From contig OY970325.1 of NCBI GenBank assembly GCA_963717145.1, forward strand, positions 4,096,001 through 4,160,000: 64,000 bases of DNA, given 5' to 3'. The translations under genes and the position numbers were made by a program. Within the stretch, counting starts at the first letter, position 1. Each line of letters begins with the position of its first letter. Shown here piece after piece: positions 50,593 through 64,000 of the stretch. Source of the stretch: an uncultured Armatimonadetes bacterium. GTDB lineage: Bacteria; Armatimonadota; UBA5829; DTJY01. The notes under the pieces were generated by a model. The model did not search any database. It saw only the letters and a program-made list of their open reading frames with translations, and was not told the origin of the DNA.

Positions 50593-52180
50593 CAGCCTGT
50601 CCATGAAATAACCTCTGGCGCAAGGTGCCAGGTATGTAGTAAAATACGGGTATGAGCAAGCCATACCTTCCTTATCAACCTGACCAGATATTGCTGTTGC
50701 CGCCCTTGATGTCGGAGTGGCTGCCCGAGGGACATCTCGCATACTTTGTGAGCGATGTCGTAGACAGTCTCGACCTTTCCGCGATATACGCCTCATACGA
50801 GAAAGAGGCCCGAGGAGCGCCGCCGTTCCATCCGGCAATGCTTACAAAGATCATATTCTACGGTTTGTGCCGGGGAGTGTATTCATCTCGAAAGCTCTCC
50901 CTGGCCACGTATGAAGATGTAGCCTTCCGGGTGCTTGCGGCAGGAAATCATCCCGACTTCCGCACGATAAGCGAGTTCAGGAAGAGGCATCTCAAGTCCC
51001 TTGCGGACCTGTTTGTGCAAGTGCTCAGGCTATGCGCAAGCGCCGGGCTTGTGTCGATGAAACACATAGCCATAGACGGAACAAAGCTGCTTGCCAACGC
51101 AAGCAAGCACTCCGCCATGAGCTACTCTCGGATGGTCGAGAAAGAAAAAGAGCTTCAGGCTGAGATCGAGGCGCTCCTTGCGAAGGGTCTTTCTGTGGAC
51201 GACCAGGAAGACGCGGAATATGGTCTTGACCGCCGAGGAGACGAACTCCCGGAGGAACTCGCAACCAGAGAGAAGCGGCTCGCCAAGATCAGGGAAGCAA
51301 AAGAAGCGCTGGAGCGCGAGGCCAAAGAGCGAGCATCAGCCGAAGAAGCGATGCGAGCCCAAGAGAAGGCGGAGCAGGAAGCATCCGGGAAGAAGCCTCG
51401 CGGCAGAGAGCCGGGGCCCGTAAAGACAGAGCCGGAAGGGAAGGCACAGCGGAACTTCACAGACCCGGAAAGCCGGATAATGAAGGACGCAAAGAAAGCC
51501 TTCGTGCAGGCATACAACGGACAAGCTGCGGTAGACGCAGATCATCAGATTGTAGTGGCGTGTGATCTCACGAACCAGGCAGCGGACTCACCGCATCTTA
51601 GTGACATGATCGAGGCAATCAAGGAGAACACCGGAAAGAAACCGGAAGAACTATCCGCCGATGCCGGATACTTCAGCAGCGACAACATAGAGATGGTCGA
51701 GCAGCAAGGGATCGACGCTTATATACCGCCTGACAGACAACGTCATGGCAAAGAGCCGACGGCGCCTTCCTGCCTTGATCCGGCAAAGCAATCCGCCGCA
51801 GATCGCCAGAGAGCAAAGCTCTTGACTCCTCTTGGCCGAAAGATCTACGGGAGGCGGAAGGAGACGGTAGAGCCGGTGTTCGGCCAGATCAAGAGCGCAC
51901 GGAACTTCCGAGGCTTCCTACTCCGAGGCCTTGCGAAAGCGAAGTCGGAGTGGACGCTTGCGTGTCTTGGGCACAACATGCTGAAGCTATACCGATACGG
52001 CGACCGGAAATCGATCTTCGATACGTAGATATATGACCTGGATCAGGCTGATTATCAAGGTACAAGGGGTCTTTACAGACCCTCGCCGGAAATCCGGCGA
52101 AAAACACTATCGAACAGCAGCCAGCGCGACCCCGCAGATGGGAAACTCACCCACATAGCGGGGAATTCTCAGACAGGCTG
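50593..52180 (+). mobile_element. IS1182-family element
   Basis: Ends CAGCCTGTC / GACAGGCTG; CTAG duplication (50589-50592, 52181-52184). Confidence 0.92.
50652..52028 (+). CDS. IS1182 transposase
   Basis: PDFRTISEFR, IDGTK, ADAGY, RKETVEPVFGQIK. Confidence 0.94.
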   Translation: MSKPYLPYQPDQILLLPPLMSEWLPEGHLAYFVSDVVDSLDLSAIYASYEKEARGAPPFHPAMLTKIIFYGLCRGVYSSRKLSLATYEDVAFRVLAAGNHPDFRTISEFRKRHLKSLADLFVQVLRLCASAGLVSMKHIAIDGTKLLANASKHSAMSYSRMVEKEKELQAEIEALLAKGLSVDDQEDAEYGLDRRGDELPEELATREKRLAKIREAKEALEREAKERASAEEAMRAQEKAEQEASGKKPRGREPGPVKTEPEGKAQRNFTDPESRIMKDAKKAFVQAYNGQAAVDADHQIVVACDLTNQAADSPHLSDMIEAIKENTGKKPEELSADAGYFSSDNIEMVEQQGIDAYIPPDRQRHGKEPTAPSCLDPAKQSAADRQRAKLLTPLGRKIYGRRKETVEPVFGQIKSARNFRGFLLRGLAKAKSEWTLACLGHNMLKLYRYGDRKSIFDT

Positions 52181-53429: not shown

Positions 53430-54134
53430 TCACCCCGGGGACGCCTTGTAGACTAGATACAGACCAGCGATCAGCACGAGGACTCCGCATATCTTCTTGA
53501 AGATATCGGCGCCCTTCGAGCCCTCATTCCAATCCAGGTAGCGTTGGACGAGTTCCGTCGAAGTGCCCGCCGCCGTGATCACCGAGCAATGCCCAAGCCC
53601 ATACACCAGGAGCAGCAGGACCGCATAGGCCGGGTTCGTCGGGGCCACCCGGAACGTGACCGCGAGGATCGGGCCCATGAATGCAAATGTGCACGGTCCG
53701 AGGGCGATCCCGAACACCAGGCCGAGGATGAACGCCGCCAGAAACCCCTTGCGCTTCATCCCGATCCGACCCGGCCCGGACCAGGGCATCGGGATCACGC
53801 CGAGCAGGTGCAGGCCGACGAGGAAGAAGACGCCGGCGACGAGATAGTTGCCCCACGGGCCGACATCCCCCATCATCCGGCCCGCCTGAGCGGTTATTGC
53901 GCCGATCAGCCCGATCGTGACCAGGATTCCGGCGGCAAACAGGGAGGCGATGCCGAACGCCCGGCGGGTAGTGAGCTTCCCCTGGTCGCTGATGAATCCC
54001 ACGATCAGCGGAATGCTCGACAGGTGACACGGGCTCAGAACGATGCTCAAGATGCCCCACAAGAAGGCGGCCCCCAGCGCGATGGCCGGTGTGCCCTCGA
54101 CTGCATGGCCGAATGCGGTGAACAGCCTCTCCAT
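53430..54134 (-). CDS. ccdA: CcdA/DsbD-type membrane disulfide transfer protein
   Basis: LSPC and GPC motifs, about 6 TM helices. Confidence 0.88.
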   Translation of the reverse strand: MERLFTAFGHAVEGTPAIALGAAFLWGILSIVLSPCHLSSIPLIVGFISDQGKLTTRRAFGIASLFAAGILVTIGLIGAITAQAGRMMGDVGPWGNYLVAGVFFLVGLHLLGVIPMPWSGPGRIGMKRKGFLAAFILGLVFGIALGPCTFAFMGPILAVTFRVAPTNPAYAVLLLLVYGLGHCSVITAAGTSTELVQRYLDWNEGSKGADIFKKICGVLVLIAGLYLVYKASPG

Positions 54135-54135
54135 G

Positions 54136-55038
54136 TCACTTCACTATCTTGACGATCCCCGCCTCGATCGACGCCTTGTCCCAGCCGCCCACGTGCCGCA
54201 GAACCTCCTTGCCGCCCTTGTCATAGAAGACCAGCAGGGGAATGGCCTGCGCCCCATAATGGACGCCGAGGACCGGTGTCTTGTCCAGGTCGATGTCGAG
54301 TACCGCGACCTTGCCTGCATACTTCGTGGCGAGCGCCTTGATGATCGGCGCCATCGTCAGGCATGGCATGCAGTTGACCGAGCCGAACTTCGCCACACTC
54401 GGTTTGCCCGAACGGCGCGCCTTCTCGATCGGGTTCTTGACCCATTGCGCGTACTGCTGCTTCGCCCAGGCGTCGGATATCCGGATCGAATGCCGGCTGC
54501 CGAAAGTCGCTACGTGGCTGCTGATGGCCGCGTTTGCCTTCTCCTCGCGGAGATAGTTCTTGATGGCAGTCTGGACCTGCTCATACTTGGCGCCGCCGAA
54601 CATCGTGACGTTCGCGTCGAAGAACGCATGCGCGTCCGCGTCGCTTACATCAGCCCCTGAGAGGATGATGGCATCCACGTACTGCTGCACGAGTTGGTCC
54701 TCAGTTCCCTTGACACCGCTCTTAGCCGCCCAGTCCTTGGCCTCTTTGGTGACGAGTTTTCCGACAGCGATGTCCTCCAGAAGGACGAAGCCATACCGGG
54801 CAAACTCTTCCTTGGAGGGCGATTTCATCTCGGCCAGTCGGTCGGCCAGGTCCTTCGCGGTGATCTTCACCCCATCTGTCTCCAGGAGCGCTCCGGCGAC
54901 AGCGCCTGGGACGGCCTGACGCAGGTCGCCGGATGAGAGGCCGGGGTACTTCGATTCGATCGTGACCGTATTCGCGCCACGGACTGCTCCGAGTGCGGTG
55001 GCGAGAATGAATATGATCAACGGCAGGCGTGAAATCAT
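54136..55038 (-). CDS. Exported protein with a helical N-domain and C-terminal thioredoxin
   Basis: Signal peptide; CMPC; AIP cis-Pro motif. Confidence 0.82.
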   Translation of the reverse strand: MISRLPLIIFILATALGAVRGANTVTIESKYPGLSSGDLRQAVPGAVAGALLETDGVKITAKDLADRLAEMKSPSKEEFARYGFVLLEDIAVGKLVTKEAKDWAAKSGVKGTEDQLVQQYVDAIILSGADVSDADAHAFFDANVTMFGGAKYEQVQTAIKNYLREEKANAAISSHVATFGSRHSIRISDAWAKQQYAQWVKNPIEKARRSGKPSVAKFGSVNCMPCLTMAPIIKALATKYAGKVAVLDIDLDKTPVLGVHYGAQAIPLLVFYDKGGKEVLRHVGGWDKASIEAGIVKIVK

Positions 55039-55052
55039 GGTGCGTACTTCTC

Positions 55053-55607
55053 CTATAACTCGATGCCTTGTTTCTTGAAGGCGGCGACAATGTCTTCTTT
55101 CGCATAGAACCCGAAATGCCGGGCGAACTCCTTGCCGTCGGTTCCGTACAGGATCTGGGTGGGAATGGTGGAGATCCGATAGCGCTTCCCGGCGCCCGGA
55201 TCCTTATCCAGGCTGATCACCACGACCTCCAGCTTGCCCTTGTACTCGGCGCGCAGTTCATCCAGAATCGGCGCCATCAACTTGCAGGGGATGCAGTTGT
55301 CGCCACCGACATCCACGATCCGAGGCAGGCGTTTCGGCTTGGGTGCGACCTTCTCAGGCTGCGTGGCGGGCTCCTCGGTCTTGACCGATGCCTTTTCGGG
55401 CTCGGCTTTTGGGGTGGCCACAGCGGGCTTGGTCTCAGGGCGCACCGGCTCGGCCGGTTCGGGCTTCTCCGCGGGCGATGAGGCCGGCGCATCCTGCACC
55501 ACGGCATTATCAGCCGGGGGCTTATCACCGTCACCCCTAAGGCTGAAAGCCGTGATGACCGCGGCCGCCAGCAGGACTACTATGATCAGCTTCCACATCT
55601 TGGCCAT
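55053..55607 (-). CDS. Membrane-anchored thioredoxin
   Basis: CIPC, IPTQ. Confidence 0.88.
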   Translation of the reverse strand: MAKMWKLIIVVLLAAAVITAFSLRGDGDKPPADNAVVQDAPASSPAEKPEPAEPVRPETKPAVATPKAEPEKASVKTEEPATQPEKVAPKPKRLPRIVDVGGDNCIPCKLMAPILDELRAEYKGKLEVVVISLDKDPGAGKRYRISTIPTQILYGTDGKEFARHFGFYAKEDIVAAFKKQGIEL

Positions 55608-55714: not shown

Positions 55715-55945
55715 CTACTTGACGAGATCGGCGATCTCCTTCGGGCTGAGCAGCTTGCCCGTGGACTTGATCTCGCCGTCCACCATCAGCGCCGGAGTCG
55801 AGAGCACCCCGGCCTTCATGATCTCCATCAGGTCGGTCACCTTCTCGACCTCGGCGTCGATGCCGTACTCCTTGACGGCCCGTTCGACGTTCTCGGTGAG
55901 CGCTTTACATTTCTGGCAGCCGGCCCCGAGAATGCGGATTTTCAT
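55715..55945 (-). CDS. Small redox-active disulfide protein (MTH895/Thioredoxin_3)
   Basis: MKIRILGAGCQKC...STPALMVDG. Confidence 0.9.
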   Translation of the reverse strand: MKIRILGAGCQKCKALTENVERAVKEYGIDAEVEKVTDLMEIMKAGVLSTPALMVDGEIKSTGKLLSPKEIADLVK

Positions 55946-56132: not shown

Positions 56133-57203
56133 CTAGAGCAACAGGTTGAACAGATACCCCACCAGCAGTATACCCACCGCTACCACACCAACGAACACGG
56201 CAATCAGTCGTGGCTTCAGCACTCGCCGCAGGATGATCGTCTCCGGGAGCGAGAGCCCGATGACCGACATCATGAACGCGAGCGATGTCCCGAGCGCCGC
56301 GCCCTTCTCCATCAGCGCCTGCACGACCGGCACGATCCCCGCCGCGTTCGAGTACATCGGGACACCGATGAGCACCGCCGCCGGGACGCTCCACCATACT
56401 CCTTTGCCCATGAATGAGGCGAGCATCCCCTCAGGCACGTAGCCGTGGATCCCCGCGCCGACCGCGATCCCTGCGACGACATACGGCCACACCTTGCCGA
56501 CGATCTCCCGCACGGCATCGAGCCCGTACCGGACCCGGCCGTCCCAGGTCAGGCTCGCTCCCTCCGACGCTTGCGCCATCTTCACGTCGAATACCCAATC
56601 CTCGATGAACCGCTCCATCCTCAGCCGGCCGATGACCCATCCGGCGACGATGGCGACCAGCAGCCCGGTGCCGACGTATAGAGCCGTGACCTTCCAGCCG
56701 AACATGCCGTAGAGCAGGACGATGGCGATCTCGTTTATCATCGGCGCGGCGATCAGGAACGAGAACGTCACACCGAGTGGCACACCGGCCTCGACGAACC
56801 CGATAAACAGCGGGCATGCCGAACACGAGCAGAACGGCGTCACGATGCCCAGACACGCGGCCATGATGTTGCCGACGAACTCCTTCTTCCCCGCCAGAAT
56901 GCCTCGGGTCCGCTCCGGGGTGAAGAACGATCTGAGCATCCCGATGCCGAAGACGACGAGCAGAAGGAGCATCAGGACCTTCGGCACGTCATATAAGAAG
57001 AACGCCACGCTGCTGCCGAGCCGGCTCTCGAGCGACAGGCCGAGCCACTTCGACGTGATGAAGTTGGCGGCGGGCTTGAGCCATCGGTACACCAGCACCC
57101 ACAGCACGAGTCCGACCGCCAGCATCACATACAGGCGGCCACCGGCTCCGGGCTTGTCCGGAGCAGTAGCGCTCTCACAGCAGCATTTGTCGTTGTTAGT
57201 CAT
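56133..57203 (-). CDS. ArsP/DUF318 permease
   Basis: TPFCSCS, SFLIAAP, GVPMY, GLSLPE. Confidence 0.9.
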   Translation of the reverse strand: MTNNDKCCCESATAPDKPGAGGRLYVMLAVGLVLWVLVYRWLKPAANFITSKWLGLSLESRLGSSVAFFLYDVPKVLMLLLLVVFGIGMLRSFFTPERTRGILAGKKEFVGNIMAACLGIVTPFCSCSACPLFIGFVEAGVPLGVTFSFLIAAPMINEIAIVLLYGMFGWKVTALYVGTGLLVAIVAGWVIGRLRMERFIEDWVFDVKMAQASEGASLTWDGRVRYGLDAVREIVGKVWPYVVAGIAVGAGIHGYVPEGMLASFMGKGVWWSVPAAVLIGVPMYSNAAGIVPVVQALMEKGAALGTSLAFMMSVIGLSLPETIILRRVLKPRLIAVFVGVVAVGILLVGYLFNLLL

Positions 57204-57248: not shown

Positions 57249-58103
57249 TCAGCAACCTCCCCTGGGCTTGGTTGCGCGAACGAACGCACTGATGATCGAG
57301 CCGACCAGTGTGGCGACCCCCTCTGTCCCAAGCTCCCGGATCACGTCCTCGGGCACGATGCCATTGGCGTCCTCAGTGGAATAGGTCCGAGCGATCTCGA
57401 CAGACGGATAGGCAAACCCTGCGTCGAGGAGCTTGGCCTTGTAGTCATCGACATGAAGCGCGCCGGCGACGCATCCCGCCCAGAGCGCGAGATGTCTCTC
57501 CAATTCGGCGGAGAGCGGCCGTGTCAGCACGATATCGGCAACGGCGAACCGACCGCCCGGCTTGAGCACCCGGAACGCCTCCCGGAGCACCTGGTCCTTG
57601 TCGGTCGAGAGGTTGATCACGCAGTTACTGATGATCACATCCACCGAGCAGTCCGGGAGCGGGATGCTCTCGATCTCGCCTCTGAGGAACTCGACGTTCT
57701 CGACGCCGGCTTCCTTCTGGTTCTGACGTGCGAGCGCGAGCATCTCGTCGGTCATATCGAGGCCGTATGCCTTGCCGGTCGGTCCGACGCGCCGGGCCGA
57801 GAGCAGGACATCGATCCCGCCGCCGCTTCCGAGATCGAGCACGACCTCGCCCGGCTTCAATTCCGCGAGGGCGAGCGGATTCGCGCATCCCATCGAGGCG
57901 AGCAACGCCTCGACCGGGATGCCCTGGGTCTCGGCCTCGGTGTAGAGGTCGCGGGTGATCGCATCCTTGCACGGGGCACCGCCGCAACAACTGGTTTCCT
58001 TATGCTCGCCCGCGTTCACCGCGACCTGGCCGTACTTCTCCTTCACGTAATCCTTGATGGTGTTCCCACCACCCGACGAACCGCAGCAACATTTCTCTGA
58101 CAT
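57249..58103 (-). CDS. arsM: Arsenite methyltransferase
   Basis: [31 protein letters not shown]. Confidence 0.92.
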
Positions 58104-58206
58104 TGTTGTCCTCCTTATGTGACCACTTCGCTAATCAAGCACCGTCTAGTCCTGAGTATGCCGGTGAATGACGGCATACTCAGGACTAGGCGGGTGTCCC
58201 TGCTCA

Positions 58207-58527
58207 TCACAGCTTGCATGCCGCCATCTTGTGTTCTGCATCCGCGCGGATGACCGCATCTATGCACCCGAGGAAATCGAGGATGCATGGGCAGCAGAGT
58301 CGGTAGTAAACCTGCAAGCCCTCTTTGCGGTCGGACACGATACCGGCATTCCTCAGCACCGCAAGATGTTTCGATACCGTGGACATATCCGATCCGACGA
58401 GCGCCTGCAGTTCGCAGACGCACAGCTCCCCGTCCGCGAGCGCCTCGACCATCGCGAGACGGCTTGGGTGCGACATCGCCTTTATCACCTGGGCCTTGGC
58501 CCTGTAATGTCCCTCGTCGTATGTCAT
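58207..58527 (-). CDS. arsR: ArsR/SmtB repressor
   Basis: ELCVCEL, STVSKHL. Confidence 0.92.
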
Positions 58528-59588
58528 CCCGCGGCCTCACAGATCGGCTCGAACCATCTCTTGCGGAACGCGAACGCCACGTTCACCAGGCCGATCATCA
58601 CCGGCACCTCGACGAGCGGGCCGATCACCGCCGCAAACGCCGCGCCCGAGTTGATGCCGAATACGGCGACCGCCACCGCAATCGCCAGCTCGAAGTTGTT
58701 GCTGGCGGCGGTGAACGAGAGGGTAGTCGTCTTGCCGTAATCAGCACCGACCTTCCGTCCCATGTAGAACGACACCAGGAACATGAGCACGAAGTAGATC
58801 AGCAGCGGGACGGCGATCCTGAGCACGTCGAACGGCTGACCGATGATCTTCTCGCCCTGGATGCTGAACATGACGATGATCGTGAACAGCAGCGCCACGA
58901 GCGTGATCGGGCTCACCCTCGGAACGAATTCGCGCTCGTACCACTCACGGCCTTTGAGTCGCAGGAGGATGAACCGCGTGAACATTCCGCCCAGGAACGG
59001 CACTCCCAGGTAGACGAAGACGCTCTTCGCGATCTGCCCGATGCTGACGTGGACTGCGATCCCTTTGAGGCCGAAGAGCGGCGGGAGCACCGTGATGAAA
59101 ACGTAGGCGAACACCGAGTAGAAGAGCACCTGGAAGATCGAGTTGAAGGCGACGAGCCCGGCGGCATACTCACGGTCGCCGTCCGCGAGGTCGTTCCAGA
59201 CGATCACCATCGCGATGCACCGCGCGAGGCCGATCATGATCAGGCCGACCATATACTCCGGGTAGCCGCGCAGGAAGACGATCGCCAGGAGGAACATGAG
59301 GATCGGACCGATCACCCAGTTCTGCACCAGGGAGAGCGCCAAGATCCTGAAGTCGCGAAATGCCTCGCCGAGCCGCTCATACTTCACCTTGGCGAACGGC
59401 GGATACATCATCAGAATAAGCCCGATCGCGATCGGGATGTTCGTCGTCCCGACCTGGAACCGGTTGATGAACGGGACCACCCCGCTTACCAGGTAGCCGA
59501 GCGAGACTCCGACCGCCATCGCCGCGAAAATCCACACCGTCAGATAGCGGTCGAGACATGATAGCTTCTTGCCGATACCATCGGCCAT
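58524..59588 (-). CDS. acr3: Acr3 arsenite efflux pump
   Basis: [36 protein letters not shown]. Confidence 0.95.
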
Positions 59589-59735
59589 TCGCGAACCTCC
59601 TCTGTAGGGAACGGCCGCTGTCCCGTTCCGCCTCACGTAGGGAACGGTCGCCGCCCTGTTCCGCCTCGACGACGGGAGTCGTCAAGGCATCGTGGCGTGA
59701 TCCCCTGACGACTCCCGTCGTCGGGGCGCACCGTA

Positions 59736-59773
59736 CTATTTGGCATTATAGCCAAATAGCCAAATGGTGTCAA
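59736..59773 (-). promoter_or_regulatory. ars operon promoter with an overlapping inverted-repeat operator
   Basis: Perfect TTGACA-N17-TATAAT; IR CTATTTGGC-N6-GCCAAATAG (59736-59759) spanning the -10. Confidence 0.85.
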
Positions 59774-59781
59774 GGGGTCGT

Positions 59782-59875
59782 GTAGGAGGGATTCTGCGGG
59801 ATGGTTTGTGCCCGCTAGTTCCGAATGAGGGGAGGTCGGGATTACCGGGCACAAACCATCCCGCATAATCCCTAC
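59782..59875. repeat. GTAG-REP-like palindrome
   Basis: gggattctgcgggatggtttgtgccc...gggcacaaaccatcccgcataatccctac. Confidence 0.75.
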
Positions 59876-60618
59876 AGCTCGGTCTTCTCTTTGGCGGCCC
59901 GCATGGCTTCTCTCTTCGCCTTGATCTCCGCCATCAAGTCGTGCATGCGGTCGAGTGCCGCTGCCTCTCCCTCGTTGCGCGGCGCGTACCACGGATGACG
60001 GACCCTCATGGTGAGGGATGAGCAGATCGGCTCGTCGGGGAATGCGCCGGGGTCGAACAACTCATAGTCGCGGAACCGTGTCGGCTGCTCCTGGTAGCAG
60101 GACCAGACGGCATCGCGCACCAGCATGGGATCGCCTTCGTCCAGCAGATCGATGATCCTGATCTGCCGTCGAAAGCGCTCGATGGCATCAATGGGGATGT
60201 TGTACAGATACGGTGTAAGAGCCTCCGAACCAATGATCCTCCGGTCGTCACCCACGCCGTTGAGAAGCAACGCATTCAGGGTTTGTCCGACGAGATGCCC
60301 CGGCGATTCAGGGCCGCAGATCACGAGGTAGCGGATGTTGGGATTGGCCACGATGTTGCAGATCACCTTCTCGATGCCGATATTCTCCGTCTGGAGCGTA
60401 CCGGCGAGCGCCGCGCCTGTCTCTATCCCAATTCGCACCAACTGCTCGATGCCGGGTGGTATGGCGTCGTCGGGCCACTTGAGGACCGCACACACGGCCA
60501 CAGGGGACAGGTCATTCCCGCGCAGGTAGCGCCCCTCTTCGGGTGGATACTCGGCGGGCGGCGTCACCTTGAAACCAGGGTTAGGCTTCCAGACCCGGGC
60601 GTCATCGTCATCCCGCAT
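59872..60618 (-). CDS. MtrA-like corrinoid-binding protein with no membrane anchor
   Basis: YPP..G.Y..G...SPVAV, G.L.TEN.GIEKVI.N.VANPNIR.L..CG.E..GH..GQ, Y.YNI...AIERFR.Q. Confidence 0.82.
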   Translation of the reverse strand: MRDDDDARVWKPNPGFKVTPPAEYPPEEGRYLRGNDLSPVAVCAVLKWPDDAIPPGIEQLVRIGIETGAALAGTLQTENIGIEKVICNIVANPNIRYLVICGPESPGHLVGQTLNALLLNGVGDDRRIIGSEALTPYLYNIPIDAIERFRRQIRIIDLLDEGDPMLVRDAVWSCYQEQPTRFRDYELFDPGAFPDEPICSSLTMRVRHPWYAPRNEGEAAALDRMHDLMAEIKAKREAMRAAKEKTEL

Positions 60619-61072
60619 TGCCGATCTCCTTCGCCTCGATGCTTCGGTGCAACACTATCGGCAGGCAGAGAAGAATGAACCCGACGTCCCTGGCGATCAG
60701 GCTCCAGCCGACTGTGTCGCCGGCGTGCGAAAGGGTGAAGCAGCCGCACTCGATGCTCAACCCGCGAGCCATGGCCGAAGCCGCGGCCGCGATGAACACG
60801 ATGTTCAGCCCGGCGAGCAGAATCCCGCCACTTCTCAGGAAGACGCCTGTGATCAACGACAGGCCGCACAGCACCTCAACCCAGGGCATCACGATGGCGA
60901 AAACGTTGACGGTCGGGACGGGGAGAAGGCGAAATCCTGCCACGCTGTCCGCGAAATCCGACGGCTTCAGGATCTTGCCAACCGCAGCATAGATGAAGAT
61001 CGCGGCCAGGGCCAGGCGGCATACGATTGCGACAGTCTTGTTGCGAAGGATCCAGTCCAGCGTCCTGTGCAT
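60608..61072 (-). CDS. DoxX/MauE-family membrane protein
   Basis: RLAL..IF.YAA.GKI, PW.E...G, ARGLSIECGCF. Confidence 0.85.
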   Translation of the reverse strand: MHRTLDWILRNKTVAIVCRLALAAIFIYAAVGKILKPSDFADSVAGFRLLPVPTVNVFAIVMPWVEVLCGLSLITGVFLRSGGILLAGLNIVFIAAAASAMARGLSIECGCFTLSHAGDTVGWSLIARDVGFILLCLPIVLHRSIEAKEIGNAG

Positions 61073-61758
61073 CAGTCGCCTGCCTTCATTCCGGATGAAG
61101 TCGGGTATCCGGCGTCCGTCCATCCGGGCAGGCCTTCGAGCATGATCACCACGCGGGTGTGCCCGAGCGCGACGAGTGCATCCGCCAGTTTGATCGCGGA
61201 CGAGCACTGCACATCGCTGCAATAGGTTACCAGCAGCCGATCTTTCGGAATCTTGCCGAGGACTTTCTCGTAGTCCTCCTCGACCGACTCGTACCCGAGC
61301 CATAGCGCACCGGCTATGTGTTCTGCCTCATAGTCCTCGACTGCTCGTGCGTCCAGGAAGATCGCGCTCTTGTTGTCGTAGCAGGCTTTCGCGTCACTGA
61401 GGTTCGTGAAGAGCGCCTGGATCTTCTGCGCCGCAGGCTTGGGCTTCGTCGCTCCGGGGATCGGTGCGACTTCAGTCTTCGGCTTCACAGGCTCGGACTC
61501 CTTGATCGGCTTCTCGGGCGACACGGTTGCCGGCGCCGACTCGATTGCGGTCGGCTTTGCGCTCGGCGCAGGAGTCGGCTTGCGTTGTGGCGACTGGGCC
61601 ATCAGCAGCTCCCTCTTGACCGTGAGCCTCGTCTCGGAAAGCGGCTTCCGGATGAGCGGCAGACCGTCAGAGCGCAAGGCATTCGAGGTGATGCCGAGAA
61701 CGATCGCGATGGCCAGGAGAATCCCGGCCTGAGCGATAACTCTACGAGCTGCCGGCAT
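61072..61758 (-). CDS. Membrane-anchored rhodanese-domain protein
   Basis: FLDAR...Y...HIAGA, TYCSDVQC, GL.GW..AGYP. Confidence 0.85.
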   Translation of the reverse strand: MPAARRVIAQAGILLAIAIVLGITSNALRSDGLPLIRKPLSETRLTVKRELLMAQSPQRKPTPAPSAKPTAIESAPATVSPEKPIKESEPVKPKTEVAPIPGATKPKPAAQKIQALFTNLSDAKACYDNKSAIFLDARAVEDYEAEHIAGALWLGYESVEEDYEKVLGKIPKDRLLVTYCSDVQCSSAIKLADALVALGHTRVVIMLEGLPGWTDAGYPTSSGMKAGD

Positions 61759-63133
61759 CCTTCGTGGCCTCCTTTACGATGTTTCCATATACAGGTAGAC
61801 TGATTGACTGGCCTTCGGGGAGGTCAGTGACGATCTTCAATTGTTCCATCACCCTGTCCTCGACTTTGCCGGCAGTCACCACCAGGCTGAGTTTGTAGCT
61901 GCCCTTGCCGTCCTTGAGCGGCTTGAAGCTGGTGATGCGCGCGTACTTCCCCGGCTCAGTCTTGACGATCTTGAATGGCTTGGGAGTCAGCGGCGTGAGA
62001 GTGATCGTCGTTTCGTACTTCCCGCCAGGCTTGAGAGTTCCGAAACTGACGGTGTCGGGACTGAGCTTGGCAATCGGCTGAATCTCGGCTTGCACGGTGA
62101 GCATTATCTTCTCGTGCGCGGGATCATTCGTCTTGACCAGGACGCGCTTCTGTACCTTGCCTTCGTAACCCGAAGAGTCGAACGCGATCTCCACCTTCTC
62201 TGAAGCGCCGGGAGCAATCGGGGGAATCGAGGCCCTGACGACCCTGGTGCACGTGCATATCGCCGTGGTCTTCGTTATCTCCAACGGCGACTTCCCTGTG
62301 TTCTTGTAAGCGAATACCGCCGTGCCCTTCTGTCCTGTGGCAATCTTGCCGAAATCGAATACGGTCTTCTCGAACTCGATGGTCGGCGCCATCGACGGGT
62401 CTACGGCGACGGGAGGCGGTTGTGCCCCATTTCCGGCCCCGGACATCACGTTTCCGTACAGGTAGTGGGCTATGGACGGGTTACCGGGAAGGTCGGTAAC
62501 GATGCTCAGTTGTCCGAATATCCTCTCGGGGGCCTCACCTGCGGTTACCTGGACCTTCACGGAGTACTTTCCATCCGCTCTGGGCGTCTTGTCGAATGCC
62601 TTCACGGTCACCTGCTTGGTGCCGCCGTCTACGCTTAGTATCTTGAACTTCTGTTTTACCAACGGAGTGATCAGAATCTCTGTCTCGGTAGTCGAATGAG
62701 GCTTAAGGTTGCCGAGTGTGGTCTGGGGAGGGGTCAAGTCGGCGATAGGCAGCACCTCGCCTACTATCGACAGTGTTGTCGTCGGATGGTCCGGATCGTT
62801 GGTTGCGACGGAGATCGTCTTGCCGATCGGCCCTCTGAAGCCGGAGGAGCTGAACACTGCCTCGATTGACGCGGACTTGCCAGGGAGCACTTTGACCTGA
62901 GTGGCTTTGGCATCGGTGCAGCCGCAGGACGCGCGCAACTTTTTGATCTCCAGTTCGGCATCGCCCGTGTTCTTGAACGGGAAGACCGCCTTGACCTTCT
63001 CCCCTTCGAGGGGCGTGCCGATGTCGAAGCTGGTCTTCTCAAACTCGATCGTCGCTGCTGCCATAGACGGCATGCTTGTGAGCAGATAGAGGCCTAACAG
63101 CAGGCCGATCATAGTAAGATAACGTAGTCTCAT
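61742..63133 (-). CDS. Exported protein with two DUF1573 (Ig-like, CxC) units
   Basis: FKNTG..L.I....SCGCT...PG...I.....S and a second unit with CTCT. Confidence 0.8.
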   Translation of the reverse strand: MRLRYLTMIGLLLGLYLLTSMPSMAAATIEFEKTSFDIGTPLEGEKVKAVFPFKNTGDAELEIKKLRASCGCTDAKATQVKVLPGKSASIEAVFSSSGFRGPIGKTISVATNDPDHPTTTLSIVGEVLPIADLTPPQTTLGNLKPHSTTETEILITPLVKQKFKILSVDGGTKQVTVKAFDKTPRADGKYSVKVQVTAGEAPERIFGQLSIVTDLPGNPSIAHYLYGNVMSGAGNGAQPPPVAVDPSMAPTIEFEKTVFDFGKIATGQKGTAVFAYKNTGKSPLEITKTTAICTCTRVVRASIPPIAPGASEKVEIAFDSSGYEGKVQKRVLVKTNDPAHEKIMLTVQAEIQPIAKLSPDTVSFGTLKPGGKYETTITLTPLTPKPFKIVKTEPGKYARITSFKPLKDGKGSYKLSLVVTAGKVEDRVMEQLKIVTDLPEGQSISLPVYGNIVKEATKDAGSS

Positions 63134-63161
63134 GTGACTCCTCCCGGGTATTACTTAGCTG

Positions 63162-63860
63162 TCAGACCTCTTGTCCCATCCGCACCGCTGATCCTGCAAC
63201 GGTCCTGCCTTCTACAAGCTCGACCACACGACCGGCGCGGGCTGCCATGCGTGGATCATGAGTGACCATTACTATGGTTATACCCTCATCGATCAGATTC
63301 TGCAACATATCGGTTACACTGTCAGCGGTTGCTGGGTCGAGGTTGCCGGTCGGCTCATCGGCGAGGATGATTGACGGGCTGTTGGCCAGCGTCCTTGCCA
63401 GCGCCACCCGCTGCTGCTGGCCGACGCTCAGTTCCGACGGCTTGTGGTGAAGACGGTTTCCCAGGCCCACCTTGTGCAAAACGGATTCAGCGATGCCCTG
63501 TTGTTCATCTCGCGTCTTGCCGGCGATCATGAGCGGCACCTGCGTGTTCTCGAGGGCCGTCAGGTACGGTATCAGGTTGAAGGTCTGGAACAGGAAACCG
63601 ATCTGCGACCTCCGGAGTTCGATGCGCTCGGCTGGCCGGAGATCGTAGATCGAAACGCCGTTGATCAAGACCTTGCCGGATGTGGGGCGGATCAGTCCGC
63701 CAAGGCTGAGCAGCAGAGTCGTCTTGCCACTTCCGCTCGGGCCGACCAGTGCCACGTACTCGCCCGGCTCGATACTGAGATCGACGCCGGCGAGACCGGC
63801 GACTTCCTTGCTTCCCCGTCCGTAGTTCTTAGAGAGCGATTCGGCGGCTAGAATGGTCAT
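63162..63860 (-). CDS. ABC ATPase (LolD/MacB-type)
   Basis: [26 protein letters not shown]. Confidence 0.93.
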
Positions 63861-63861
63861 G

Positions 63862-64000
63862 CTATCCCTCCATCAGGATCGTCGCCGGATCGAGGCCGGC
63901 CGCGCTCCGTGCCGGTATCGCGGTGGCGAGGACGCTCAGGGCCACTGAGATGAGCAGCGCCCAGGCGAGCAGCGACGGCATCGGGAGCACGGGGATCTGC
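63862..64000 (-). CDS. 3' end of a FtsX/MacB-type ABC permease (truncated by the window edge)
   Basis: ...LATAIPARSAAGLDPATILMEG*. Confidence 0.85.
   Translation of the reverse strand, partial: QIPVLPMPSLLAWALLISVALSVLATAIPARSAAGLDPATILMEG

Follow-up and report, generated by a model that had tools for sequence, protein, structure and literature searches.

A soluble MtrA-like protein of predicted cobamide-binding type encoded beside arsenic resistance genes in an uncultured Armatimonadota bacterium and its relatives

Anoxic arsenic methylation and demethylation determine the speciation of arsenic in rice paddies, sediments and groundwater. To our knowledge, the only enzymes so far assigned to these reactions are the S-adenosylmethionine (SAM)-dependent methyltransferase ArsM and the oxygen-dependent ArsI, and since ArsI requires O2, it is unusable in strict anaerobes. 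Here we consider a stretch of 64,000 nucleotides (hereafter the window) from an uncultured Armatimonadetes bacterium (GTDB lineage Armatimonadota; UBA5829; DTJY01; GenBank assembly GCA_963717145.1, contig OY970325.1, forward-strand positions 4,096,001 to 4,160,000), in which a gene for a homolog of MtrA, a corrinoid protein of methanogens, lies directly upstream of a set of arsenic resistance (ars) genes. The locus raises the question of what an MtrA-like protein could be doing in an ars operon, and whether its position there has any meaning. No paper tying MtrA-family proteins to ars operons was found in the open-access literature, and a review of ars genes published in 2018 contains no mention of cobalamin or corrinoid (PMC6205960). 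Two recent reports call the mechanism of anaerobic arsenic demethylation unresolved and consider corrinoid methyltransferases of methanogens for it (PMC10579292, 2023; 10.64898/2026.08.27.747368, 2026).

Fold, cofactor site and genomic background of the MtrA-like protein

It is well supported that the gene encodes a soluble protein of predicted cobamide-binding type with an MtrA fold, belonging to a distinct, mainly bacterial subfamily (NF002126). The original prediction, made from the letters of the window, had recognised an MtrA signature including a Gly-His motif, and this reading is borne out: residues 19–183 match the Pfam family PF04208 (MtrA) with an E value of 1.5e-41 (142.3 bits against a cut-off of 25), and the His of the motif CGPESPGH aligns with His84, the cobalt ligand in M. 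fervidus's cytoplasmic MtrA homologue solved with cobalamin (5LAA). Among NCBIfam models, the subfamily model NF002126 gives 184.2 bits, above its cut-off of 161, and TIGR01111, the equivalog model of canonical mtrA, gives 139.9 bits, below its cut-off of 249.15. The closest solved structures are 5LAA (E 4.6e-40), the MtrA subunit as part of the Mtr complex (8Q3V) and MtrA of M. jannaschii (5L8X). The structure prediction that had been suggested for the putative His-cobamide site recovered the MtrA fold: an AlphaFold model built with 60 sequences has a mean pLDDT of 90.3 and a pTM of 0.80, and all seven Foldseek hits at E ≤ 0.001 are MtrA chains, with target-normalised TM scores of 0.93–0.94 for 5LAA and 5L8X. 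The protein is laid out as a Rossmann-like core (residues ~17–185), a subfamily-specific extension (186–215; DPGA[FY]P...TWRV) and a C-terminal helix (216–247), which is long and charged in the model. The extension, kept in the subfamily as L-[FY]-D-P-G-A-[FY]-P ... T-W-R-V ... P over residues 187–209, takes the place of the membrane helix. The absence of a C-terminal transmembrane helix, noted earlier from the translation, agrees with the hydropathy profile, in which no membrane helix was found (19-residue Kyte-Doolittle means peak at 1.12 over the whole protein and at 0.13 within the last 60 residues).

The cobalamin contacts of 5LAA and the roles of the residues concerned are taken from section 6 of Wagner et al. 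2016 (PMC4915002), the part of that paper which describes them. In the sequence alignment, the axial ligand His84 corresponds to H108 of the MtrA-like protein, Glu54 to E78, Asn55 to N79, Thr53 to T77, Gly57 to G81, Asn64 to N88, Tyr18 to Y31 and Val61 to V85; the Glu of the hydrogen-bond relay is thus matched by E78. H108, T77, G81 and N88 are invariant across the 84 rows of the subfamily alignment, and E78 is substituted in just six of them, all from one subclade. The cysteines C87 and C174 are also invariant in these rows, C101 is kept in 8/8 and 31/33 rows of the two most ars-linked clades, and C199 is kept solely in the small clade of the MtrA-like protein itself. C101 and C174 occur in archaeal MtrA too, and C87 adjoins the Asn that binds the cofactor tail. 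An additional cysteine triad serving as an As(III) site was considered and rejected, since C87 and C174 make up no new triad and C101 and C174 are common to archaeal MtrA.

The genome is a single closed contig of 5,366,867 bases, in which PF04208 matches only once. The lack of further mtr subunits, previously read from the window, extends to the genome as a whole, where MtrH, MtrE, MtrD and MtrC have no match, while both control methanogens were positive in each of these searches (MtrB, F and G were not searched). A full mtr operon elsewhere in the genome, an outcome that the original prediction had named as speaking against it, was not found. Because the protein has no membrane helix, the genome has no MtrC, D, E or H, and the score falls below the cut-off of TIGR01111, the protein is not a tetrahydromethanopterin S-methyltransferase subunit. 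The name 'tetrahydromethanopterin S-methyltransferase subunit A', under which its close homologs stand in the databases, is therefore a misnomer in this genome without Mtr partners. The genome encodes CobS and two RACo-type activases, which indicates that it makes cobamides and runs other corrinoid systems.

Linkage to ars genes among relatives

The MtrA-like gene is a regular member of ars operons in many anaerobes, and its link to them is real and, in this lineage, ancestral. A scan of one genome per species yielded 270 relatives, and the neighbourhoods of the best 80 of these 270 were compared: neighbouring open reading frames were clustered, recurrent clusters were named from one representative each, hidden Markov models (HMMs) were built from them, and all six frames of every locus were rescanned. 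On the same strand and within 5 kb of the MtrA-like gene, ArsR is found in 35 of the 80 loci, Acr3 and Thioredoxin_3 in 31 each, an ArsP-type permease in 30, CcdA in 27, ArsM in 19, a DGC protein in 17, ArsC of the low-molecular-weight (LMW)-phosphatase type in 16 and an ArsF-family protein in 13. At least one of Acr3, ArsM and ArsC is present in 38 of the 80, and any gene of the ars/thiol module in 55, so the enrichment of ars genes near homologs, for which neighbourhood statistics had been proposed as a check, is seen. When the comparison is confined to the 41 loci that extend 3 kb or more to either side of the gene, 20 have Acr3, ArsM or ArsC within 3 kb. A hallmark ars gene stands beside the MtrA-like gene under nine phylum labels. 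With a single Acr3 and a single true ArsM over the 5.37 Mb of the genome, chance adjacency would be about 0.2% per locus, a rough estimate without a computed control. As a within-genome control, ArsM scores above its cut-off in 24 of the 40 searched genomes with the gene, and 11 of these 24 have it no more than 5 kb away from the MtrA-like gene.

In two loci labelled Planctomycetota (L048 and L062), the MtrA-like and ArsC domains are encoded in one open frame, and a database protein 76% identical to the MtrA-like protein (P0003) consists of ArsC followed by the MtrA-like domain; fusions are known in both domain orders. In another relative (L002), the MtrA-like gene and arsC overlap. A relative of the same family, G005, has the gene order ArsR, MtrA-like, Acr3, ArsM, permease, Trx3, Trx, Trx, CcdA, which is the order of the window minus the upstream block, ArsR1, the hairpin and the promoter (Table 1). 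Its ArsR is 50% identical to ArsR2, a second repressor encoded past the end of the window, and 36% identical to ArsR1. Judging from this comparison, the ancestral order in the lineage was probably arsR-mtrA-like-acr3-arsM-arsP-trx3-trx-trx-ccdA, with the gene of ArsR2 as the orthologous arsR. The earlier caveat that the link might be positional only is contradicted by the place of the G005 gene between arsR and acr3 and by the arsC fusions in other lineages. The gene is patchy among kin, being found in three of 40 other relatives searched, one of which is the same contig as L002.

The distribution of the ars link within the subfamily was followed on a quick maximum-likelihood tree of the 84 subfamily rows and 18 outgroup representatives, with SH-aLRT support only. 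The clade that holds the MtrA-like protein (starred in the tree) has seven rows, all with ars genes, which correspond to six distinct records, as L002 is the L083 contig. Two more clades are mostly ars-linked, one of 12 rows (six with a hallmark gene, four with module genes only and two with none) and one of 33 rows (25, five and three, respectively). The ars association is strong yet clade-specific: the expected link of homologs to ars genes holds for three of the four subclades, and does not hold for most of the fourth, a subclade of 31 rows considered below.

Several observations on relatives concern accessory genes and domains. In six Planctomycetota loci (L008, L024, L026, L044, L069 and L071), an FMN-reductase-type gene lies just 5' of the MtrA-like gene and a small AhpD/CMD-like gene lies 3' of it; the one representative read, that of L008, begins with a twin-arginine-like signal. 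The sole LMW-phosphatase-type ArsC of the Armatimonadota genome (C1:528754-529173, minus strand, locus L090) is 69% identical to the ArsC overlapping the MtrA-like gene in L002, and the frames around it look like a phosphate-transport (Pst-like) operon, as read from the sequences with no family search. A predicted complex of the MtrA-like protein with this ArsC scored below the mark set, which counts neither way. Of ten long and more distant representatives of the family, six carry a thymidylate-synthase-like domain, one a ferredoxin, one a TusA and two nothing recognisable. The thymidylate-synthase-like domain is a C-terminal fusion in P0157, P0160, P0161, P0162, P0174 and P0187 (39–51% identity) and may be a pterin- or folate-binding partner of the corrinoid domain. 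A neighbouring subfamily (P0124, P0126, P0128 and P0125) has a Cys-rich C-terminal extension of 200 residues and, once, an N-terminal TusA; P0125 has an N-terminal 2x[4Fe-4S] ferredoxin domain.

Organisation of the locus

Table 1. Annotated features around the MtrA-like gene; positions refer to the window unless another record is named
Feature	Position	Strand	Basis or remark
MtrA-like gene, soluble MtrA-family protein (predicted cobamide-binding type), 248 aa	59872-60618	-	Pfam, NCBIfam, structure model, hydropathy
Strong hairpin over the MtrA-like stop codon	59781-59876	-	-59.4 kcal/mol, z -9.05
Sigma-70-type consensus promoter, TTGACA-17-TATAAT	59773-59745	-	12/12 match; in 283-nt gap
20-bp palindrome across the -10 hexamer; candidate operator for ArsR in front of the acr3-arsR-arsM unit	59738-59757	-	sequence; unique in window
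Acr3 arsenite efflux permease	58524-59588	-	start inferred at ATG 59588 behind GGAGG
ArsR1, ArsR-family repressor, ELCVCEL motif	58207-58527	-	sequence/Pfam
ArsM, SAM-dependent arsenite methyltransferase	57249-58103	-	NF008823, 340 bits against cut-off 263
ArsP_1-family permease, TPFCSCS motif	56133-57203	-	Pfam
Thioredoxin_3, small CxxC redox protein	55715-55945	-	start inferred at Met where Pfam match begins
Two membrane-anchored thioredoxins (55053-55607, 54136-55038) and CcdA/DsbD_TM (53430-54134)	53430-55607	-	Pfam
Genome-specific block, overlapping the MtrA-like start	60608-64000	-	Pfam/NCBIfam and homolog-locus comparison
MauE/DoxX	60608-61072	-	Pfam
Rhodanese	61072-61758	-	Pfam
DUF1573 (two copies)	61742-63133	-	Pfam
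ABC ATPase	63162-63860	-	Pfam
FtsX/MacB permease	from 63862, past window end	-	profile match
287-aa membrane-anchored protein, Cys-rich C-terminus	L089 6123-6986, just past window end	-	no Pfam match

All genes of the locus are on the minus strand, and the co-oriented series acr3-arsR-arsM-arsP-trx-trx-trx-ccdA described previously was recovered downstream of the MtrA-like gene with each of its members assigned to a family. Acr3 starts 283 nt 3' of the MtrA-like stop, and ArsM is 1.7 kb downstream. Throughout the genome, this locus holds the sole Acr3, the sole strong ArsM, the sole ArsP-type permease and the sole Trx3 of these types. The pair of membrane-anchored thioredoxins makes up an extracytoplasmic thiol-reducing module with CcdA/DsbD_TM. 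A DDE transposase (DDE_Tnp_1, DUF772; 50652-52028, plus strand) is found 1.4 kb past the end of the cluster at CcdA, and the ars island may therefore have a mobile-element border.

The gap before acr3 contains the promoter of its own that had been ascribed to the ars genes, a perfect consensus, and the palindrome across its -10 hexamer was not found before the upstream ArsR2 unit. The hairpin that precedes this promoter is a copy of a palindromic repeat of the genome, seen also at about C1 2836373 and elsewhere, with a 20-mer arm present at two genome sites and a 14-mer core occurring 11 times in each orientation, and it resembles a member of a REP-like element family. A reading as a canonical intrinsic terminator was rejected, because no U-tract follows the hairpin and its sequence is repeated in the genome.

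Past the end of the window, the FtsX/MacB permease is followed by the 287-aa membrane protein and then by the second arsR (ArsR2). The claim of a tightly spaced upstream operon ending in the MtrA-like gene stands as far as the layout goes, with 28 nt between the ATPase and DUF1573 and overlaps of 17 nt to the rhodanese, 1 nt to MauE (whose start is inferred) and 11 nt to the MtrA-like gene. As a set of lasting partners it does not hold up: at E ≤ 1e-5, none of 83 homolog loci has a match to MauE, rhodanese, DUF1573, the FtsX permease or the 287-aa protein. The six genes (for the Cys-rich membrane protein, the FtsX/ABC exporter, DUF1573, rhodanese and MauE) look like a block that has entered the ancestral operon in this genome, parting arsR from the MtrA-like gene. 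The NCBIfam model 'OS_HP2 family (seleno)protein' is matched by the DUF1573 protein, and models named 'rhodanese-related (seleno)protein' are matched by the rhodanese at scores short of their cut-offs, on which account the inserted block looks like an extracytoplasmic thiol/selenol redox set. The 287-aa protein ends in the Cys-Gly-Pro-rich tail CGSGCGPSGCGP, and a similar tail is seen at the end of 'c20', a cluster without a name that six homolog loci carry next to CcdA and P-type ATPases. Directly 5' of ArsR2 and on the same strand is a gene for a thioredoxin-reductase-like flavoprotein (Pyr_redox_2; L089 7679-8596, minus strand).

Possible reactions, rival explanations and known systems

The reading that we favour is cobamide-dependent methyl transfer to or from arsenic, in which the protein would act as a soluble MtrA-type cobamide protein of ars operons that exchanges a methyl group between cobalt and arsenic; we would put its chances at about even. 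The cobalt would cycle between Co(I) and methyl-Co(III) and swap the methyl group with arsenic without oxygen. In the preferred direction, which is methylation, As(III) made by ArsC would attack methyl-Co(III) to give a methylarsenical, which would be reduced by way of thioredoxin-coupled ArsC and leave the cell through the ArsP-type permease; the fused or adjacent ArsC would either supply As(III) or reduce the pentavalent product. This would constitute a methylation route independent of ArsM. The reverse direction is nearly as likely: a pentavalent methylarsenical would give up its methyl group to Co(I), and the As(III) so released would go to Acr3. In both cases, the donor or acceptor that closes the cycle would be encoded elsewhere, as would the reductive activator, for which the two RACo-type activases are candidates. 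The chemistry has precedents, since As(III) is methylated by methylcobalamin without any enzyme and by MtaA of methanogens as a side reaction, according to two reports (PMC6950371, PMC13262295), and ArsP of C. jejuni exports MAs(III) (PMC6205960). A more specific form of the reverse direction, in which the MtrA-like protein would be the core of an O2-independent methylarsenical demethylase, an anaerobic counterpart of ArsI that passes the methyl group into one-carbon metabolism, appears unlikely.

A number of observations weigh against methyl exchange with arsenic. A conserved methyltransferase for loading or unloading the methyl group was not found beside the gene, ArsM being the sole methyltransferase among the neighbour families present in at least four of the 80 loci; this counts against both directions and leaves room for a methyl-free reductive role or for a role in the care of the cofactor. 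ArsM itself can be ruled out as an obligatory partner, as no ArsM reaches the cut-off in 16 of the 40 searched genomes that carry the gene, among them the closed chromosome of L029, in which the cluster reads permease-MtrA-like-ArsC-Acr3 (most of the others are drafts of unknown completeness). Twenty-five of the 80 loci lack ars-type genes within 5 kb on the strand of the MtrA-like gene, although three of these have ars genes on the opposite strand and many are on short contigs. No alternative shared context was found in the 25, the largest common family (response-regulator/HD-domain-like) being present in four loci at varying distance and strand. Twenty of them fall in the well-supported fourth subclade, in which 11 of 31 rows are linked, and the ars link is therefore not universal. 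Members of this subclade come from Thermodesulfobacteriota, Anaerolineales, Spirochaetota, Actinomycetota and two Methanosarcinales, and in the loop before their ligand His, C101 is mostly replaced by Gly and P106 mostly by Glu. In addition, the neighbour HMMs were derived from the same loci that they score, and the family names rest on one representative per cluster. In the window itself, the hairpin and the promoter part the MtrA-like gene from acr3, and as the palindrome before acr3 is not repeated before the upstream unit, arsenic co-regulation of the MtrA-like gene is inferred from ArsR2 only.

The absence of a conserved methyltransferase partner is also what speaks for a methyl-free cobamide reduction, in which Co(I) bound to the protein and supplied with electrons by a ferredoxin or flavoprotein would reduce arsenic species, for example to volatile arsine. 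The FMN-reductase-type gene found within 500 nt in six of the 80 loci and the ferredoxin fusion of P0125 would provide electrons, the ArsC fusions would suit successive reductions, and, according to one review (PMC6950371), whether metalloids are methylated or converted to hydrides depends on how much methyl-Cob(III) there is relative to Cob(I). We consider this route rather improbable, however, as the flavoprotein and ferredoxin links occur in a minority of loci only, arsine formation is not established as a dedicated detoxification route, and the characterised MtrA proteins are all methyl carriers according to Wagner et al. (PMC4915002). There is a similarly slim chance that the gene is regulated by arsenic while its product does not act on arsenic, and instead stores, protects or supplies cobamide or methyl groups for B12-dependent enzymes impaired by arsenite or methylarsenite stress. 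Such a role would account for a gene that is often under ArsR-type control and has no fixed enzymatic partner; the subclade without ars context would fit a more general cobamide function, and the genome runs other corrinoid systems (CobS and the two RACo activases). On the other hand, no B12-dependent enzyme is conserved nearby, and a step in the arsenic pathway itself is favoured by the in-frame ArsC fusions and by the close overlaps of the gene with those for ArsC, ArsM and the permease.

A cofactor-free role, as an arsenic-binding chaperone or sensor that uses the conserved cysteines on an MtrA scaffold, seems quite improbable. The invariance of C87 and C174 and the retention of C101 in the two most ars-linked clades would be expected of such a protein, but two of these three residues are shared with archaeal MtrA, the third stands beside the tail-binding Asn and adds no new site, C199 is limited to the small clade of the window, and the conservation of every cobalamin side-chain contact is hard to explain without the cofactor. 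The last alternative, that the gene serves the upstream ABC exporter, DUF1573, rhodanese and MauE in handling sulfur, selenium or thiol redox and is no more than a neighbour of the ars operon, is disfavoured and must be regarded as very improbable. It would be compatible with the 11-nt overlap between the start of the gene and the MauE stop, and with the hairpin and independent promoter before acr3; however, the five upstream families compared are missing from the 83 homolog loci, while ars genes recur among homologs, and the gene lies directly between arsR and acr3 in G005.

Among the closest known systems, the cytoplasmic MtrA homologues of methanogens (5LAA; PMC4915002) resemble the MtrA-like protein in being soluble and of a single Rossmann-like domain, with the same fold, the same residues at the predicted His-on site and about 40% identity. 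According to Wagner et al., the methanogen homologues have 170–180 amino acids and are 60–97% identical to membrane MtrA, whereas the MtrA-like protein has a conserved additional 60 residues (DPGA[FY]P...TWRV and the helix), is bacterial, lacks Mtr or tetrahydromethanopterin (H4MPT)-linked partners and is encoded in ars operons. Bacterial MtrA homologues receive one sentence in that text, with no function given (PMC4915002). MtrA of the Na+-pumping methyl-H4MPT:coenzyme M methyltransferase MtrA-H (8Q3V, 9QTQ) shares PF04208 and the cobalt ligand, but differs in its C-terminal membrane helix, in the presence of MtrC/D/E/H and in the TIGR01111 score. Three-component corrinoid methyltransferase systems (MT1, corrinoid protein, MT2 and a RACo/RamA activase) are comparable in their small carrier, and activases are present in the genome; the MtrA-like protein differs as a carrier, being of MtrA type where a B12-binding type is usual, and MT1 or MT2 families are absent from the neighbour clusters present in at least four of the 80 loci. 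ArsM and ArsI are the proteins of ars operons known to make and break the bond between methyl group and arsenic; they have other folds and cofactors, and the MtrA-like gene is also found in genomes without ArsM.

HgcA, which consists of a CFeSP-type corrinoid domain and a membrane domain, offers an analogy by way of function, as a corrinoid protein that methylates a toxic element; the ferredoxin-fused relative P0125 recalls its partner HgcB. The two are unrelated in fold and family: the MtrA-like protein matches PF04208 only and has no membrane segment, and there is no ferredoxin gene in the window (HgcA models were not searched). HgcAB is described as a corrinoid system under an arsenic-responsive ArsR-like regulator, in a preprint that does not mention MtrA (10.1101/2022.10.17.512643), so that arsenic-regulated wiring of a corrinoid system does exist.

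The chemistry between methylcobalamin and arsenic has so far been viewed as a side reaction (PMC6950371, PMC13262295). A dedicated B12-type protein in the ars operons of many anaerobic phyla, sometimes fused to ArsC, would, if the favoured reading is true, make the question testable with one small soluble protein. Should the demethylase form apply, it would be the missing enzyme of anaerobic arsenic demethylation in paddy soils and sediments. The result would also correct the widespread naming of such proteins as 'tetrahydromethanopterin S-methyltransferase subunit A' where bacteria lack that enzyme. As a regular gene of ars operons in many anaerobes, the MtrA-like gene suggests that arsenic handling includes a B12-dependent step not described before.

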